Positions 4,642 through 63,032 of a DNA stretch of 64,000 bases are shown in pieces (the first letter of the stretch is position 1; every line of letters starts with the position of its first letter). Location of the stretch: positions 32,177 through 96,176 of IMG/VR virus record IMGVR_UViG_3300034101_001153; one strand, written 5' to 3'. The notes under the pieces were generated by a model. That model had not been told where the DNA came from. It worked only from the letters and a program-made list of their open reading frames with translations, and ran no database searches. A program made the position numbers and the translations under genes. This stretch comes from a virus.

Positions 4642-6404
4642 TCATTATTAGGATCATTCATTGGAGGTACTCTTATTATATTGTTCGGATTGGCAGCAGA
4701 TGCAGCAGCAAGTCTATTATCTCTTATTAATTGCTTATATGTATGCACCTCAATTTCAACATCGTCAGATTCTTTTCTTGTTCCTGTAATTGAATTATAG
4801 ATAGCGCCACATACTGCATCAGACAAGTCCTTAGATCCCTTTCTTGGGTGATCTACTTTGTCACGAATAATTCTTAGTTGTAATAGTTCGTCAACTAGAA
4901 GAGGTATTCTTGGGCCAACAATTCTTTCTTCTCCTACCAACATAGCCATATCATCATAGTGCTTCTTAGCAACTGATAATGTTTCTGTTTGCATACCAAT
5001 CATTCTAAGTTCTGATTGAATATCATGCGACTGCCAGCGGTCAAATGTGGTCTTTTTAATATTAAATCCGCGAGACCTAAGATCTACAATAAACTGCTTA
5101 ACTTCTGAAAAGTCTACTGACTTATCTGATGTTGGAGTCCACCATCTTACACAATCAACAACCACCACTGGGCTTACTACATTATGGTCTAAGAAGGACT
5201 TAATGTTTACCCATCTATCAACGTGAGCCAAGGCGACCGCACAGTGATCATGCTTTTGTGCAAGGTCAACATGGACGAAATATTCTTTTTCTTCTACTGG
5301 TGTAAAGAAATCATAGAATCTTCCAAACTCATCCACCCCATTGTACGGCTGATTAAAGCATGTTTCAATCTTATCTCTTGATTTGAAAAATGCATCTATT
5401 GAGTCTGGAGGCATACATGCAAAACGTGACAAGGCATCTATTGAATTGGTAAAGAATGCTCTCTTAAAGTCATCAATGCTTCTTGTTGGATTTATTTCCC
5501 AGGTGGGTCTTTTTAGTGCGAACACTCTTGGAAATCTATATGCATTTATGTTGTCTTCTTCCCAGTCAATTTCAAACTTGTTTTCTTCTATTACATCATC
5601 AAGTTCGTCATCGATTTTAAATGTATGATTTCTTACAATGACTTCTTTGTCAGCAATTACGGAGTCATACCGCTGTTGAATAAAGTCGCCCTTGAATCTT
5701 GGGAACGACAAAAGAATTACTTTCCCATAGTCTGGAAATCGTGAGTCTACTGATGCTCTATACATATCATAGATGGCTTGTGCTGTTTTAGACTGGTCAC
5801 TGCCACTAGTTGACTCCATGCTGAAGCCAGAAATCTCATCTAGAATGACACAAATAACATTGTATCCTTCCCATGACTCTCTTTCAGAGTGTCCAGAATG
5901 ACATGTTATAGATTTATCAAAAGATACAGCCTGTTGGGTAACAGTATACTTTCCAACAAACCACGGGGATTCCTCAATTCTTTTTCTGAATCCTTTGAAG
6001 AATACATTTTTAGCCTGGTCAGCGTTAATAGCAATATTAATAATATCAATGGCATCGCCAGGGGGTTTACCATAATATTTCGCTGGATCTTTGAGGCAAA
6101 GTAGCAAATAAACAAGGTATGCAACAGCAACCGTAGACATATAATCCTTACCGCTTCCTTTTCCAAGTTGCAGGATTACTTCATTGCAGGTTTGCTTATA
6201 TCTTTTTAAACCTTCTTCTTCACCATATATTCTTATTAGAGTTTCTTTTTTATATATCTGAGTCATTGATTTGATACATTGATACTGGTATTCAGAAAGT
6301 GGAGGAAGTCTTAAGTATTGTTCACTAGTTGCGAACTCTTCAATAGTTACAGGGATCTCATCAAACTCGTCACCATCAAGTGCCTGTAAAAAATCCTCAA
6401 ACAT
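4620..6404 (-). CDS. terL: terminase large subunit
   Basis: Walker A LGKGSGKD, Walker B VILDE, nuclease motifs HVDLA and SKDLSDA. Confidence 0.93.
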   Translation of the reverse strand: MFEDFLQALDGDEFDEIPVTIEEFATSEQYLRLPPLSEYQYQCIKSMTQIYKKETLIRIYGEEEGLKRYKQTCNEVILQLGKGSGKDYMSTVAVAYLVYLLLCLKDPAKYYGKPPGDAIDIINIAINADQAKNVFFKGFRKRIEESPWFVGKYTVTQQAVSFDKSITCHSGHSERESWEGYNVICVILDEISGFSMESTSGSDQSKTAQAIYDMYRASVDSRFPDYGKVILLSFPRFKGDFIQQRYDSVIADKEVIVRNHTFKIDDELDDVIEENKFEIDWEEDNINAYRFPRVFALKRPTWEINPTRSIDDFKRAFFTNSIDALSRFACMPPDSIDAFFKSRDKIETCFNQPYNGVDEFGRFYDFFTPVEEKEYFVHVDLAQKHDHCAVALAHVDRWVNIKSFLDHNVVSPVVVVDCVRWWTPTSDKSVDFSEVKQFIVDLRSRGFNIKKTTFDRWQSHDIQSELRMIGMQTETLSVAKKHYDDMAMLVGEERIVGPRIPLLVDELLQLRIIRDKVDHPRKGSKDLSDAVCGAIYNSITGTRKESDDVEIEVHTYKQLIRDNRLAAASAANPNNIIRVPPMNDPNNDWHIGMV

Positions 6405-57974: not shown

Positions 57975-58667
57975 ATGAAGATAGATGTTCTAGATCATGG
58001 ATATGTTAGATTAATTGGAAACTTCGGCTCTGACCTTGAAGTAGTTAATTCTGCTAGAGTATCTTATGATAAATCCGTAGACTTTATTGACTCTAAAGAT
58101 GAAAGACTTCTTGAATTTTTAATTAAGAATAAACATGATTCAACTCTTAGACATTGTACCATCTCCTTTGAAATTTACGCCCCTTTGATGATTGCCAGAC
58201 AATGGTACAAGCACGCGGTATCTAGTACTCATTTAGACGATCAAAACGGATGGAACGAATCGTCGCGCCGTTACGTTACAGAAGAACCAGTCTTTTACGA
58301 GCCGCGAAAATGGAGAACATCCCCATCAAATTCCAAACAAGGATCTGGCGATCCAGTGCATCCTGACATGTCTGCACGCATTAGCGAGCGACTTAAGTAT
58401 CATATTGACGAATCTGTCAATTTGTACAATTCTTTGCTCGCATCTGGCGTGGCAACAGAGCAGGCACGTTTATTTCTTCCCGCATATGCGATGTATGTCC
58501 GCTGGCGCTGGACAACAAGCCTTAATGCAGTATTACACTTTTGCTCACTACGTCAGGCAGAAGATGCTCAGTTAGAAATACAAGAATACGGAAATGCTGT
58601 ATTATCTATAGTCAAAGACTTATATCCTTTGTCAACGAGATATTGGGAGCGGCACAGAATTGGATGA
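57975..58667 (+). CDS. thyX: flavin-dependent thymidylate synthase
   Basis: NSARVSY, ARQWYKH, NESSRRY, EQAR, AQLEI. Confidence 0.95.
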   Translation: MKIDVLDHGYVRLIGNFGSDLEVVNSARVSYDKSVDFIDSKDERLLEFLIKNKHDSTLRHCTISFEIYAPLMIARQWYKHAVSSTHLDDQNGWNESSRRYVTEEPVFYEPRKWRTSPSNSKQGSGDPVHPDMSARISERLKYHIDESVNLYNSLLASGVATEQARLFLPAYAMYVRWRWTTSLNAVLHFCSLRQAEDAQLEIQEYGNAVLSIVKDLYPLSTRYWERHRIG

Positions 58668-58866
58668 CAATATACAAGATATCAATGAACACCTAGGCAT
58701 GGTTACTTTTATCATGTTAGGTAGAATATACGATATGCTTGCTTTGATCGCAGATGGAGTAGGCAAGGGTGAAGACGCATTGCGTCTGATTGAACTCCAT
58801 AGATCAGGGGAGATTATGTCACCGCCCCCGTCTTTAAACGTAGAGGAAGAAGATGAACAATCTTAA
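58660..58866 (+). CDS. hypothetical protein
   Basis: Coupled ORF. Confidence 0.7.
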   Translation: MDDNIQDINEHLGMVTFIMLGRIYDMLALIADGVGKGEDALRLIELHRSGEIMSPPPSLNVEEEDEQS

Positions 58867-59125
58867 AATTGAAATTATGAGATATAAGTTATCTCATGGA
58901 TGCATGATCTGTGGATATGATAAAAATCCTCATGTATTACATTTTGCTCATCGTGATCCTGCTACTAAGTATAGAAATAAATATGGCAAGGTTGTAGAAC
59001 CATCAGATATGATCAAGGGTCGCCACCGCCCCAGATATGGAGCAGCAACTGTATGGAAAGAAGTTGCTAAATGTGATGTTCTTTGCTCTAACTGTCATGG
59101 TGAGCAAACGTATCCGTTATCCTGA
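58853..59125 (+). CDS. small HNH-like protein
   Basis: CMICG...LHFAH...KCDVLCSNCH. Confidence 0.75.
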   Translation: MNNLKIEIMRYKLSHGCMICGYDKNPHVLHFAHRDPATKYRNKYGKVVEPSDMIKGRHRPRYGAATVWKEVAKCDVLCSNCHGEQTYPLS

Positions 59126-59984: not shown

Positions 59985-60256
59985 TGGTAAAGGTTCAGTC
60001 TTTCGATGGTATGTCCTTGGTGAATGCGAAGGCTGAGATTCAGCACCCGCTCGCTGATGAGGTGTCTATCGCTATTGGTGATGGTGCCATGGCACGCTTC
60101 CCCTACTCTGTAGAACTTGCATTCTTCAAGAATGGCGATTGGCAAGAGTATATTCTTGAAGAGTTTGCTGCATATCACTCTGGCGGTGTGTATGCGTATG
60201 TTCCCTTGGAGATGTTCGCTAACTTCCTTGAGGCTTGGAGGGTTCGGTATGCTTGA
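59984..60256 (+). CDS. hypothetical protein
   Basis: SD GGAGG. Confidence 0.75.
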   Translation: MVKVQSFDGMSLVNAKAEIQHPLADEVSIAIGDGAMARFPYSVELAFFKNGDWQEYILEEFAAYHSGGVYAYVPLEMFANFLEAWRVRYA

Positions 60257-60437
60257 TCTTCATGATTCCCGCACGGGACGGACGTATCGTTGGAATGAAT
60301 CGCACACCGTCAGCATCTATAACCGCGAGGGTGAAGAAATCGACTGCTTCACCTTTGGATTCATGGCAGACGGTAGCACTCCAACCTTTGTAGAGTTTTG
60401 CGCGGCAGTGAATAGGAGAATTAGAGAGTATGTCTAA
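60249..60437 (+). CDS. hypothetical protein (MLDLHDS...)
   Basis: SD GGAGG; overlap coupling. Confidence 0.7.
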   Translation: MLDLHDSRTGRTYRWNESHTVSIYNREGEEIDCFTFGFMADGSTPTFVEFCAAVNRRIREYV

Positions 60438-60630
60438 CGTGAAAGTCAATCCACCCGATGCATTCATCATGAATTGCAAGATGATGTATAACGAGGTCGG
60501 GCAGATGCAGGATCGCATCAGTAGAATGTGGGCATCATCCGATGGTGAGCGTGATCAGTCCATGCTGGAATACATAGAGGACATGCTAGAGAATATCGAA
60601 ATAGAGTTGCGAAATAGACTTGACAATTAG
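60430..60630 (+). CDS. hypothetical protein
   Basis: SD AGGAG. Confidence 0.7.
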   Translation: MSNVKVNPPDAFIMNCKMMYNEVGQMQDRISRMWASSDGERDQSMLEYIEDMLENIEIELRNRLDN

Positions 60631-60668
60631 CGTTTTGTGGCCCGGCACACCTAGCGCACTTTGTCAAG
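60619..60668. repeat. CTTGACAA-GGCCCGGCAC-TTGTCAAG element, copy 1
   Basis: 8-bp IR flanking a central conserved decamer. Confidence 0.8.
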
Positions 60669-60678
60669 TCCTTTAAGA

Positions 60679-60694
60679 TGTGATTTACGACACT
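60679..60694. promoter_or_regulatory. CRP/GlxR-like box
   Basis: TGTGA-TTTACG-ACACT. Confidence 0.45.
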
Positions 60695-60783
60695 CACGAA
60701 AATGTCCCAGATAGCGGAACAGACCCCCTTCACTGTCAGACCCCCATGATAAGGTATACCTAGATAGAAAGAAGGGTTTTACC

Positions 60784-60903
60784 ATGACAAAGTTCGCATA
60801 CATTGACTACTCCGCCGACGCGCAAGAGCGCGAGGATTGGCTGGCATGGCTCCAGGCTAAGGCTGAAGAGCGTAGACTGTCAGACTCTCATGGTAAGGTA
60901 TGA
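60784..60903 (+). CDS. 39-aa hypothetical (MTKFAYID...)
   Basis: Behind motif promoter and SD. Confidence 0.65.
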   Translation: MTKFAYIDYSADAQEREDWLAWLQAKAEERRLSDSHGKV

Positions 60904-60905
60904 GC

Positions 60906-61010
60906 ATGAACCTAGAAGAACTATACGAGAACTTCCTCCGCTTGGAGGCCACCCTTGACCTTGACCCCAACCCTTGGGTGTCAGACCATGATGATAAGGT
61001 GAAGCCATGA
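60906..61010 (+). CDS. 34-aa hypothetical, leaderless
   Basis: ATG 6 nt after TAAGGT. Confidence 0.65.
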   Translation: MNLEELYENFLRLEATLDLDPNPWVSDHDDKVKP

Positions 61011-61138
61011 CAACATACAAGGTGTTCGTAGATGGAGAGTTTTTCTCCACGGTTGCCACCCGCGAGGGTGCTGAGACTATTCGTGACTTTTGGGCATCAC
61101 CCCGTCAGACTGTTGAGATTGTGGAGGTGGGAGCATGA
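61007..61138 (+). CDS. 43-aa hypothetical, leaderless
   Basis: ATG 6 nt after TAAGGT. Confidence 0.7.
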   Translation: MTTYKVFVDGEFFSTVATREGAETIRDFWASPRQTVEIVEVGA

Positions 61139-61278
61139 CCACAGTAGAGTTTGAGAAGGCATGGCTGGATAACTACTACATGCTTGGCGACCATGCTTTC
61201 GACTATGCGCGGTGCATGTATCTGGACGACGGCACTCTGATTGTCGATGGAGTGCGCTATGAGGAGGTTCCTTTCTAA
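61135..61278 (+). CDS. 47-aa acidic protein ending EEVPF
   Basis: SD GGAGGT, ATGA overlap. Confidence 0.7.
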   Translation: MTTVEFEKAWLDNYYMLGDHAFDYARCMYLDDGTLIVDGVRYEEVPF

Positions 61279-61430
61279 TGCAGAATATCTACAAGGTCTA
61301 CTACGGTGGACAGTACATGTGTTCATTCTTTGATAGGGATGGTGCCCTTGATTGGGTCGCCACCCTCCTCGCGGAAGGCGAGGGGACCTTCGATGACTAC
61401 GAGATTCTGGATGGGAGTGACTTCCTATGA
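61278..61430 (+). CDS. 50-aa hypothetical
   Basis: SD GGAGG, TAATG overlap. Confidence 0.7.
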   Translation: MQNIYKVYYGGQYMCSFFDRDGALDWVATLLAEGEGTFDDYEILDGSDFL

Positions 61431-61558
61431 GTTACCATCCCATCACTCACGATGAATTCGATCAGATACTGCGCGAGTCGGAGATTCGTTGTCGGACCCT
61501 CATGATAGGATCTTTCTATGTTGAGAAGCAGGAAGCAAGCGGGGAAGCACAAGACTAA
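61427..61558 (+). CDS. 43-aa hypothetical
   Basis: SD GGGAG, ATGA overlap. Confidence 0.5.
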   Translation: MSYHPITHDEFDQILRESEIRCRTLMIGSFYVEKQEASGEAQD

Positions 61559-61664
61559 TTGCTACTTTGGCTGTTGCCGTAGCATGACCAAGAAGCAGGA
61601 ACGTCGCTACCTGAAGCGGCGGGAAACTAACGAGTGGAAGAAGGATCAGAATGTGGCAGGATAG
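61518..61664 (+). CDS. 48-aa basic Cys-containing protein, leaderless
   Basis: ATG 6 nt after TAGGAT. Confidence 0.65.
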   Translation: MLRSRKQAGKHKTNCYFGCCRSMTKKQERRYLKRRETNEWKKDQNVAG

Positions 61665-61866
61665 TGCAGCGTGCAAGGATGCAGACTCTAGTCTGTTTCT
61701 AAGTGGTGTGACCTCGCGTGTAGAGAAGGCTAAGGCTATTTGTGCAACGTGTAGCGTGATCGACAAGTGCCTTGCATTTGCGATTGCTAATGAAGATTTT
61801 GAGCCGCATGTCTACGGTGGAATGACTGGTGAGGAGAGGCGGCGTGTCGCCTTGACAAATGCCTGA
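61651..61866 (+). CDS. whiB: WhiB-family transcription factor
   Basis: WQDSAAC...AKAICATCSVIDKCL...VYGGMTGEERR. Confidence 0.92.
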   Translation: MWQDSAACKDADSSLFLSGVTSRVEKAKAICATCSVIDKCLAFAIANEDFEPHVYGGMTGEERRRVALTNA

Positions 61867-61901
61867 AAGTGGGCCCGGCACGCCCAATCATATTTGTCAA
61901 G
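61851..61901. repeat. CTTGACAAAT-GGCCCGGCAC-ATTTGTCAAG element, copy 2
   Basis: Perfect 10-bp IR around the central decamer. Confidence 0.8.
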
Positions 61902-61911
61902 TGCTTACGAC

Positions 61912-61927
61912 TGTGATTAAGACCACA
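61912..61927. promoter_or_regulatory. CRP/GlxR-like box
   Basis: TGTGA-TTAAGA-CCACA. Confidence 0.5.
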
Positions 61928-61972
61928 CTGAAATATTCGCAGAATGTCAGCCCCCTATGCTATAGTCGTGCT

Positions 61973-62119
61973 ATGAGTAATCGTGTGAGCCACCGCCGTA
62001 GCGCGGAGCATAATCGTATCGTGCAGGAGCGCCGCCGTTCTAGTGCCGCGCAGCCTCATAAGAATAAGGCCAAGTATTCGCGCAAGGCCAAGCATCGTAA
62101 CCGTTTCGTTACCGACTGA
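61973..62119 (+). CDS. 48-aa highly basic peptide with ArfA-like tail, leaderless
   Basis: ATG 6 nt after TATAGT; HKNKAKYSRKAKH. Confidence 0.7.
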   Translation: MSNRVSHRRSAEHNRIVQERRRSSAAQPHKNKAKYSRKAKHRNRFVTD

Positions 62120-62169
62120 TACCCCTTATCCCCCTATCCATTGTCAGACCCCCATGATAGGATCATTCC

Positions 62170-62727
62170 ATGATTACAGTTACCGCCCCTGAGGGCACCA
62201 TCGAATACGCTACCTATGCCGCTCGCTTTGAGAGCCTTATCATGACCGCCACCCTCGCGCAGATGGAGCAAGCCTCCGTCTGGTATCGTGACGCGGAGGA
62301 GGTTGCGGAGGAGGTTGCTCGCAACCTTGACACTACCCTAGAGGTAGGCGCATCCATTGTCGCAGCATTCTCGCCGCGTGAGCGTTGGTCCACTAACGTC
62401 GCTAAGGCTATCGCGTTCTCGCTTGGCTCGCGTCCCGCTGGCCTTGGCAATAACCTCCGCATGGCAGATGCCGCGCTCGCGGCAGGCTTCGATGCGCTCA
62501 AGGGTCCTAAGACTAACGCTTTCGCTCGCGCTATCGCAGGCGACACTAACGCGGTTGTCATTGACGTTTGGATGATGCGTGCGGCAGGCATGGAGACTGA
62601 CTCTCCTAATAAGACTCAATACGCTCTACTGTCTGAGGCTGTCACCGCTGTCGCTGCACAGTTTGGCATCACGCCTCGCACCGCGCAGGCTCTTATCTGG
62701 ATCATCGTGCGAGGGGGTGCGGCGTGA
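62170..62727 (+). CDS. conserved phage protein, possible HhH-GPD glycosylase-like fold, leaderless
   Basis: WY...AAFSP...W...GPKTNAF...VVIDVW...QALIW. Confidence 0.65.
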   Translation: MITVTAPEGTIEYATYAARFESLIMTATLAQMEQASVWYRDAEEVAEEVARNLDTTLEVGASIVAAFSPRERWSTNVAKAIAFSLGSRPAGLGNNLRMADAALAAGFDALKGPKTNAFARAIAGDTNAVVIDVWMMRAAGMETDSPNKTQYALLSEAVTAVAAQFGITPRTAQALIWIIVRGGAA

Positions 62728-62782
62728 ACGATATCACGCTAGAGAATTTTCGGGAGATGTTGCGCGACTTTTCGGGGGTGTG

Positions 62783-62854
62783 ATGCTTCTTCTATCTATT
62801 TTGGTAGTGTCGCTTCTCGCGCTAGGGTTTCTCATATCACTTAGAAAGGAGTGA
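62783..62854 (+). CDS. 23-aa hydrophobic peptide
   Basis: MLLLSILVVSLLALGFLISLRKE, coupled to a 19-aa ORF at 62724-62783. Confidence 0.45.
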   Translation: MLLLSILVVSLLALGFLISLRKE

Positions 62855-62881
62855 AAAACCCTTATTTTTAAAGGGTTTTTT
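62854..62881 (+). terminator. intrinsic terminator
   Basis: AAAAACCCTT/AAGGGTTTTTT. Confidence 0.75.
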
Positions 62882-62890
62882 GGAACTGGC

Positions 62891-62919
62891 GGCCCGGCAC
62901 ATCTTATTCATCATGTCAA
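62891..62919. repeat. GGCCCGGCAC...TGTCAA element, copy 3 (left arm missing)
   Basis: Same decamer and right arm at the same spacing. Confidence 0.7.
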
Positions 62920-63032
62920 ATCATTATTAAGATAATTATTACGGAGTCACTGAAAAAGTCACTGAAATTTTTCTTGATGCTGTCAGACCCATCTGCTATA
63001 TTTATATCACCTAGACAGAAAGGATATCCGTT

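Follow-up and report, generated by a model that had tools for sequence, protein, structure and literature searches.

Phages of the T4 type carry PeSL (promoter-early stem-loop) elements, in which a GGGG...CCCC stem-loop is combined with a sigma-70 early promoter and which mediate modular shuffling (Arbiol et al. 2010, PMC2839356; Comeau et al. 2014, PMC4122927). Both terminator activity and mini-circles have been demonstrated for them (PMC2839356, PMC4122927). In the modular theory of phage genomes, linker sequences are short conserved junction sequences that give homology between otherwise unrelated modules (PMC2839356). Here we analyse a window of 64 kb (the whole stretch of DNA under study, 64,000 nucleotides), which is the right part (bases 32177-96176) of a 96,176-bp virus record of IMG/VR, IMGVR_UViG_3300034101_001153. 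Its early region contains a repeated 50-bp imperfect palindrome with TTGACA arms and a GC centre, located between cassettes of small genes. We favour, with moderate confidence, the reading that this palindrome belongs to a PeSL-like composite cassette boundary, made of a stem-loop, control boxes and an early promoter, whose conserved blocks act as recombination linkers.

Like PeSL, the boundaries of this phage are intergenic modules between small early or ORFan genes, present as many repeats in one plastic region, and a stem-loop with a G-run and a C-run is followed by an early promoter for the host sigma factor. Relatives vary by gain, loss and reordering of cassettes, with crossovers within the repeated module, as in the T4-type phages. 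On the other hand, the phage group and the host sigma factor differ and there is no sequence similarity; furthermore, the stem-loop is here framed by mirrored -35 boxes, and two phased bipartite box pairs precede the promoter. Common descent finds no support, the element having no nucleotide match to deposited phage records and the structural and replication genes being those of another phage type. The element works like PeSL and is not a member of that family by descent. An earlier note on this DNA, made from the sequence alone, had drawn the analogy with PeSL, and it proved apt: cassettes are permuted, halves recombine and the logic of both systems matches. The likeness to the linkers of modular theory lies in the homology provided at junctions, but the linkers are here defined regulatory blocks of 6-22 bp, and the halves of the palindrome travel with their own cassettes.

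Results

A repeated palindrome between early gene cassettes

The element is a dyad composed of TTGACA, 18 nt, the centre, 18 nt and TGTCAA. Its successive parts are a 10-bp arm, an A-rich spacer, a GC stem of 4-7 bp, a T-rich spacer and the mirrored arm. The window contains two full copies, A and B (CTTGACAA-N34/35-TTGTCAAG), and a right-half copy, C, as the earlier note had described (coordinates in Table 1). Searching for CTTGACAA-N30-40-TTGTCAAG returned exact matches only at the two full copies, and none in 100 dinucleotide shuffles, while the centre GGCCCGGCAC occurs exactly three times in the window, in A, B and C, always on the + strand. In both full copies the left arm overlaps the end of the upstream open reading frame (ORF): the stop codon of ORF 60430-60630 falls inside A, and the WhiB ORF (61651-61866) terminates within the left half of B. 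Three further half copies lie beyond the window, a right half at genome positions 788-817 and left halves at 2130-2157 and 5640-5667. The early region, of about 12 kb, thus contains six boundaries, each a repeated intergenic module between small early genes, and the palindrome is one component of this longer module.

Cassettes are permuted at the elements in related phages

Relatives were collected with a pattern scan and a protein-anchored search, which yielded over 40 viral loci and 80 metagenome loci (numbered with L). The element is conserved in more than 20 IMG/VR contigs, with the arms and downstream boxes of the window, and is also found in further metagenome contigs. In the records searched whole that hold full copies, these cluster in one short stretch per record; in a complete 105-kb genome (G002), for instance, all of them lie within 9 kb.

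The order in the window's genome is g92606, A, the WhiB cassette, B, the cassette of a 48-aa gene and DUF7178, C, the tRNA-Leu/g95921/g200 cassette, D, the DUF932/tRNA-Asp cassette and E, and it is shared by L020 and L026. The DUF7178 cassette is found ahead of the WhiB cassette in L008, L014-L016, L122-L124, L128 and L129, the DUF932 cassette ahead of the g95209 (tRNA-Leu/g200) cassette in L011 and L013, and L017 shows yet another arrangement. Cassettes delimited by elements therefore stand in at least three orders among relatives, which agrees with the cassette-boundary device proposed in the earlier note. All broken adjacencies of the window's genome are at elements, where they affect five of the six element junctions, among some 40 junctions (an estimated count).

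Comparison of elements across genomes yields 22 chimeric pairs, alike on one side and unrelated on the other, versus 8 pairs alike on both sides. Identity frequently starts or stops at or beside the centre, as when B of the window is aligned with L011:9698 (identical through GTGGGCC and unrelated beyond), L010:8577 with L013:5367, or L010:8171 with L014:9686; other switches are located in an arm or at the first box. The left and right halves of the element assort independently, each travelling with its own cassette. The ends of alignments are concentrated near the centre, with a 4-fold enrichment within 30 nt (9.7% of the ends in 2.4% of the sequence). Furthermore, gene-by-gene identity matrices are mutually incongruent, those of neighbouring genes included, which reveals rampant mosaicism. 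Taken together, the permuted order, the switching halves, the excess of end points and the incongruence between neighbours identify the boundary modules as exchange points, and the breakpoint comparison that the earlier note had suggested came out in favour of the cassette boundary it proposed. Since the same short blocks recur at every boundary and in relatives, they act as linker sequences, a role borne out by genome comparison.

Short Logan contigs of the phage and its relatives, taken from one metatranscriptome and three lake metagenomes, also yielded variant joints, most of them located at a promoter box or at the start of a gene. The lake metagenome contigs join 60142 to 60734, 60756 to 61135, 60771 to 61006 and 61000 to 61135, and in others the order changes from 60885 or 60899 back to about 59920. 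Several of these joints coincide with a gene start or with a promoter box (TGTCAGACC or ATGATAAGGT), and those within 60142-61135 read as gene-level shuffling inside cassettes.

The arms are constrained in sequence and the centre in symmetry

The centre differs between lineages. It is of the type GGGCC-S-GGCCC in the window's group (GGCCCGGCAC in the window), and elsewhere GGCGCGCGCC, CGGTG-N4-CACCG, GCGGG-N4-CCCGC, TCGGG-N4-CCCGA, GCGCGG-N12-CCGCGC, GCGGGG-CA-CCCCGC or GGGTCGACCC. Most genomes have one centre type in all copies, with spacers that differ between copies. Strict uniformity within a genome had to be rejected, since two metagenome contigs carry two types each: L123 has GGCGCACGCC together with GCGGGGCACCCCGC, and L126 has GCGGGG..CCCCGC together with the CCGG type. 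Recent recombination between lineages appears to have produced both.

When 24 full copies are aligned, no variation is seen in six of the eight arm pairs, and the arms remain constant over relatives whose proteins are 55-94% identical. By contrast, both sides change in five of the six centre pairs, with 28 compensated cells versus 15.7 +/- 2.9 in shuffles (0 of 500 reach 28), and this signal is lost when the partner columns are slid. Because arm pairs barely vary and centre pairs change together, constraint acts on the sequence of the arms and on the symmetry of the centre.

Full copies fold into 50-nt hairpins of -15 to -24 kcal/mol (z -2 to -6.8), among them A (-20.1 kcal/mol, z -4.25) and B (-19.9 kcal/mol, z -3.88); C alone does not fold (z +1.7). 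The likeness of the centre to a terminator is heterogeneous across copies: a GC hairpin with an immediate U-tract is found in L026, L048, L052, L053 and L058 and is absent from the copies of the window. The RNase III hairpins of phage T7 resemble the element in size (about 50 nt), in having an internal loop and in lying between co-directional early genes, but they lack a frame of invariant -35-like arms and have no known role as recombination linkers.

Pairs of DnaA boxes (TTATCCACA or TGTGGATAA, 11-12 bp apart) replace the right arm in the last element of the window's genome (L004:5640-5700) and in every listed element of one more distant lineage (L019 and L022, for example L019:5061-5130). 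A match of the pattern scan in L005 was discarded as a chance occurrence in a coding region of a contig with 58% GC. Finally, a scan of genome contigs with the 10-bp arms gave 60 matches, which have neither the GC centre nor the TTACGA box, and no copy in a candidate host.

The arms coincide with -35 boxes

The earlier note had described the arms as perfect -35 hexamers without a -10, and this description holds, no TAnnnT being found 16-18 nt downstream of either arm. The position expected for the -10 of both convergent arms, 16-17 nt from each TTGACA, is occupied by the CCGG of the centre, and reads CCGGCA or CCGGGC on both strands, which does not correspond to a sigma-A promoter. In distant relatives TAnnnT follows 16-18 nt downstream of 39 out of 94 plus-strand CTTGACA, mostly with TG and often with a TGTCAGACC box right after the hexamer, and these units read as complete promoters. 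In the window's group, TAnnnT is found at this distance in 10 of 76 CTTGACA, and a GC block in 35 of 76. Furthermore, in L044 the -35 of a real promoter has the same position as the left arm of A, at the end of a g92606-like gene. On this evidence the arms are -35 consensus boxes, and docking of RNA polymerase at the DNA level remains for this reason a rival explanation. Separately, the distant relatives have a contiguous early promoter composed of CTTGACAA, a TGTCAGACC-type spacer box and an extended -10 (L023:2014, L024:11438, L028:7921, L033:14574, L034:6636 and L015:4896); in the window's group the perfect -35 box sits in the arms of the palindrome and the promoter retains only a weak -35.

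According to this rival explanation, which we regard as possible though rather unlikely, the holoenzyme (or sigma region 4 together with the WhiB of the phage, or another conserved factor) would bind the mirrored sigma-A -35 arms without opening the GC palindrome that occupies both -10 positions, and the element would serve as an insulator, a decoy or an upstream anchor of the box array. The invariance of the arms, the use of CTTGACA(A) as the -35 of real promoters, the spacing of each TTGACA to CCGG and the position of the L044 promoter all speak for it, as does the arrangement of arms, centre and boxes in steps of about 10-11 or 21 bp. The phage also encodes a WhiB, a member of a family that binds region 4 of sigma-A (PMC10243135). 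Against docking, many copies have a single arm only, and the compensatory changes of the centre are equally expected of a hairpin. In addition, a -35 box alone is known to give weak and short-lived binding of the polymerase.

More tentatively still, we consider it unlikely, though worth stating, that the dyad is a purpose-built DNA device, with mirrored -35 boxes around an unmeltable, lineage-specific GC palindrome, used for docking of RNA polymerase that does not fire (perhaps with WhiB) or as the target of an unrecognised nicking or exchange enzyme. If so, the early cassettes would be insulated and their exchange driven, and the retention of CCGG would reflect protection of the site or a function at it.

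Box pairs and early promoters follow each element

Downstream of the elements we found two staggered bipartite pairs, in which TTACGA or TTAAGA is followed by CACNGAAA or a variant 21-22 bp later. The second pair begins about 12 bp after the first (10-12 bp over all boundaries), and the first box begins 11-14 nt after the start of the right arm, its register with the element being kept within about 3 nt. An extended -10 of the form TGnTAnnnT with a TGTCAGACC box is seen, in sequence terms, after each element, at a variable distance of 69-106 nt from the centre (Table 1). After B, the ATG at 61973 is only 6 nt past the -10, which suggests that the 48-aa gene starting there is leaderless.

A CRP-like box had also been reported in the earlier note. 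The string TGTGA-N6-(A/C)CAC does begin 10 nt past both full copies, but it is the overlap of the TTACGA/TTAAGA and CACNGAAA boxes (at A, TGTGA-N6-CAC is contained in the box block) and is present at some boundaries only, so that this part of the note does not stand. Read as a CRP/GlxR site, TGTGA-N6-TCACA, its second half matches at 3 of 5 positions in A and 4 of 5 in B, and half of the six boundaries (C, D and E) lack the site; the loose TGTGA-type pattern occurs 7 times genome-wide. Two other readings were rejected. If TTGTCA of the right arm or TTACGA is taken for the -35 and the -10 is sought among the boxes, no consistent TAnnnT appears at 16-19 nt, and GGCAC as the -24 of a sigma-54 promoter is followed by no -12 element. 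To our knowledge, Actinobacteria are devoid of sigma-54.

Table 1. Boundary elements, promoters and selected genes of the early region (positions in the window unless a locus is given)
Feature	Position	Strand	Details
HNH endonuclease and Lsr2-like DNA-bridging protein genes	58853-59125; L004:5051-5398		
Full dyad A	60619-60668		left arm CTTGACAA 60619-60626; centre GGCCCGGCAC 60639-60648; right arm TTGTCAAG 60661-60668
Box pairs after A	60673-60713	+	TTAAGA 60673 with CACGAAAA 60695; TTACGA 60685 with CCCAGATA 60706; offset 21-22 bp
Early promoter after A	60727-60755	+	TGTCAGACC spacer box; extended -10 TGATAAGGT; gene start 60784
Full dyad B	61851-61901		left arm 61851-61858; centre 61872-61881; right arm 61894-61901
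Boxes after B	61905-61933	+	TTACGA 61905; TTAAGA 61917; CACTGAAA 61926
Early promoter after B	61938-61966	+	TGTCAGCCC box; extended -10 TGCTATAGT
Canonical intrinsic terminator	62854-62881	+	A-tract, hairpin, T-tract; replaces left arm ahead of copy C
Right-half element C	62891-62920		centre GGCCCGGCAC 62891-62900; degenerate right arm ATGTCAAA 62913-62920
Box pairs after C	62927-62967	+	TTAAGA 62927 with CACTGAAA 62948; TTACGG 62939 with CACTGAAA 62960; both offsets 21 bp
Early promoter after C	62974-63002	+	-35 TTGATG; TGTCAGACC box; extended -10 TGCTATATT; gene start 63033

CCGG is retained in the centres of a purged genome

As the earlier note had stated, all CCGG sites of this region lie within the three copies of the element. 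The window contains 4 CCGG versus 54 +/- 7 expected, three of them in element centres, and the 96-kb genome 11 versus about 137 expected, of which six are element centres. AGCT is absent from the whole genome (0 versus about 339 expected from composition) and from the loci of all close relatives, while other lineages of the family miss GCGC and CGCG, or GGCC. This pattern points to a strong, lineage-specific restriction pressure.

A sensor of restriction-modification or a methylation-sensitive switch acting on the retained CCGG, which the note had proposed, would account for a word that is purged and yet kept in every element centre of this lineage, in a genome where the complete loss of AGCT attests strong selection against some short palindromes. 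We nevertheless hold it to be very improbable. Close relatives purge CCGG equally strongly yet have CCGG-free centres (GGCGCGCGCC, CGGTG-N4-CACCG, GCGGG-N4-CCCGC or GCGCGG-N12-CCGCGC), and L016, whose centre is rich in GCGC and CGCG, does not avoid these words elsewhere (GCGC 46 versus 34 expected, CGCG 43 versus 34). The centre is consequently not in general an avoided restriction word, and a reading specific to CCGG lacks generality. Moreover, CCGG is likely to arise by chance in any pure G+C palindrome, and it is best read as the core of this lineage's version of the GC palindrome, one version among several.

Serine and tyrosine recombinase domains are absent from the genome

The presence of a 50-bp dyad at the 3' end of each cassette could also reflect a dedicated site, similar to an integron attC, at which a recombinase, a nickase or a structure-specific nuclease cuts the centre and drives cassette exchange. 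The halves that switch at or beside the centre in several independent pairs, and the conservation of one centre with differing spacers within most genomes, would be in line with such a site. However, the Pfam domains of serine recombinases (PF00239) and tyrosine recombinases (PF00589), as well as sigma-70 region 2, are absent from the genome. This sets the element apart from serine-recombinase att/res sites, and also from attC or tyrosine core sites, to whose RYYYAAC/GTTRRRY consensus the arms do not fit. We also looked for co-variation with the centre type in HNH, ThyX, g200, WhiB, g92160, g92606, g95209 and g91781, and none of them tracks it; the early HNH proteins of L008 and L016, for instance, are 91% identical although the centres differ. 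Breakpoints, furthermore, also fall in arms, boxes and the promoter box. The lack of a recombinase or extra sigma factor, the lack of a co-varying gene and the contigs with two centres (L123 and L126) weaken the case for a dedicated trans factor, and we judge an exchange site of this kind improbable. The injection-stop signal listed in the earlier note, known from T5 as a cis site that halts DNA entry after the first-step transfer, finds no support here; there are six copies per genome and not one locus.

The element does not behave as a mobile repeat

Repetitive extragenic palindromic (REP) sequences, bacterial interspersed mosaic elements (BIME) and Correia-type elements are chromosomal, dispersed, GC-rich palindromes mobilised by transposases, some of them with promoter-like boxes at their ends. 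They share with the phage element the form of lineage-specific, GC-rich imperfect palindromes that lie at gene 3' ends and fold in RNA, but the phage element is confined to one region, occupies orthologous sites and shows no target duplication. A selfish miniature inverted repeat (MITE, REP or Correia type) spreading within the early region would be short, with terminal inverted repeats and several copies per genome, as observed here, and other phyla contain MITE-like repeats that are unrelated but have identical 10-bp ends. This origin is hardly credible, however: full copies have no target-site duplication, copies of different relatives occupy orthologous positions, those within one genome differ in their spacers, the register with the downstream boxes is kept, and no transposase is found among the annotated proteins. 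The unrelated repeats (L061-L120) are multi-copy palindromes with ends CTTGACAAAT...ATTTGTCAAG, identical over 10 bp and located inside longer terminal inverted repeats, in metagenome-assembled genomes of Desulfobacterales, Gammaproteobacteria, Anaerolineae, Clostridia and Syntrophaceae.

The early region and its host

The larger part of the record consists of genes for replication and virion proteins in a block on the minus strand (DNA polymerase, ribonucleotide reductase, portal, protease/capsid, tail and fibre proteins). The early region, on the + strand, extends from ThyX at window position 57975 over the contig junction to about genome position 5.6 kb (L004:1-5600), has 48-50% GC versus 34-41% elsewhere in the genome, and holds all the elements. 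Its cargo includes WhiB, an HNH endonuclease, an Lsr2-like protein, DUF7178, DUF932, many small ORFans and three tRNAs. The HNH endonuclease (phrog_2255) is small and early, and it is far more divergent among relatives than its neighbours. The end of tRNA-Asp coincides with the start of a left arm (L004:2057-2157) and tRNA-Glu is 58 nt ahead of a right-half element (L004:657-817), which makes these tRNAs cassette cargo beside boundaries. An Rfam scan of the early region returned tRNAs only, and PDB sequences and the ESM Atlas gave nothing useful on the function of DUF7178.

The ends of the record overlap by 69 bp. Because the early region continues across this overlap, which lies inside it, the stated direct terminal repeat probably reflects an overlap of the assembly or a piece of a longer repeat that has collapsed. 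The presence of WhiB and Lsr2 suggests that the host is an actinobacterium, and the phage appears to be a lytic, siphovirus-like phage of lake Actinobacteria. No match to the region was found with megablast and blastn in 50,697 phage records. Lake-water metagenomes of 21 studies contain at least half of the sampled words of the sequence.

Discussion

We propose the following order for each complete boundary: the upstream gene comes to its end, the palindrome follows, then the two bipartite box pairs in staggered arrangement, and last a promoter of the sigma-A type with an extended -10, which serves the next cassette. The palindrome would be the closing half of this composite module between early cassettes, and the boxes and promoter would open the next one. 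Transcription of the palindrome would produce a stable stem-loop, which probably attenuates, ends or processes read-through from the upstream cassette, and may do so in both directions; each cassette would thereby be expressed from its own promoter. The arms, the GC centre, the boxes and the promoter core are repeated from boundary to boundary and shared with co-circulating relatives, and genome comparison shows that recombination joins cassettes in new orders at these blocks.

Several observations weigh against this proposal. Alignment end points are also enriched at the promoter box (3.5-fold), which makes the palindrome one of several linkers; breakpoints at boundaries could likewise result from selection that keeps transcription units intact. 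An RNA hairpin leaves unexplained why the arms are invariant and identical to the -35 box of the family. Copy C has a canonical terminator immediately ahead of its centre. Half copies fail to fold, yet the distance from their centre to the downstream boxes stays fixed. Finally, only 8 of 26 hairpins have at least five T within the following 9 nt, and most of them are consequently not canonical intrinsic terminators.

Restriction pressure in lake Actinobacteria poses a puzzle of its own, since AGCT and CCGG are purged to an extreme degree and yet CCGG is kept in the element centres. The set of cis elements described here (mirrored -35 arms, a covarying GC centre and phased boxes) offers an entry to early transcription in a group of hosts that lacks genetic tools. 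As far as we found, the only other PeSL-type cassettes on record are those of T4-type myoviruses, whose hosts are Gram-negative. We see the same logic, independently, in abundant and uncultured phages of freshwater Actinobacteria, where self-contained early cassettes end in a stem-loop, start with a host-sigma promoter and are swapped at the repeated control blocks. The old idea that linker sequences underlie phage mosaicism thereby gains a concrete case that can be tested.

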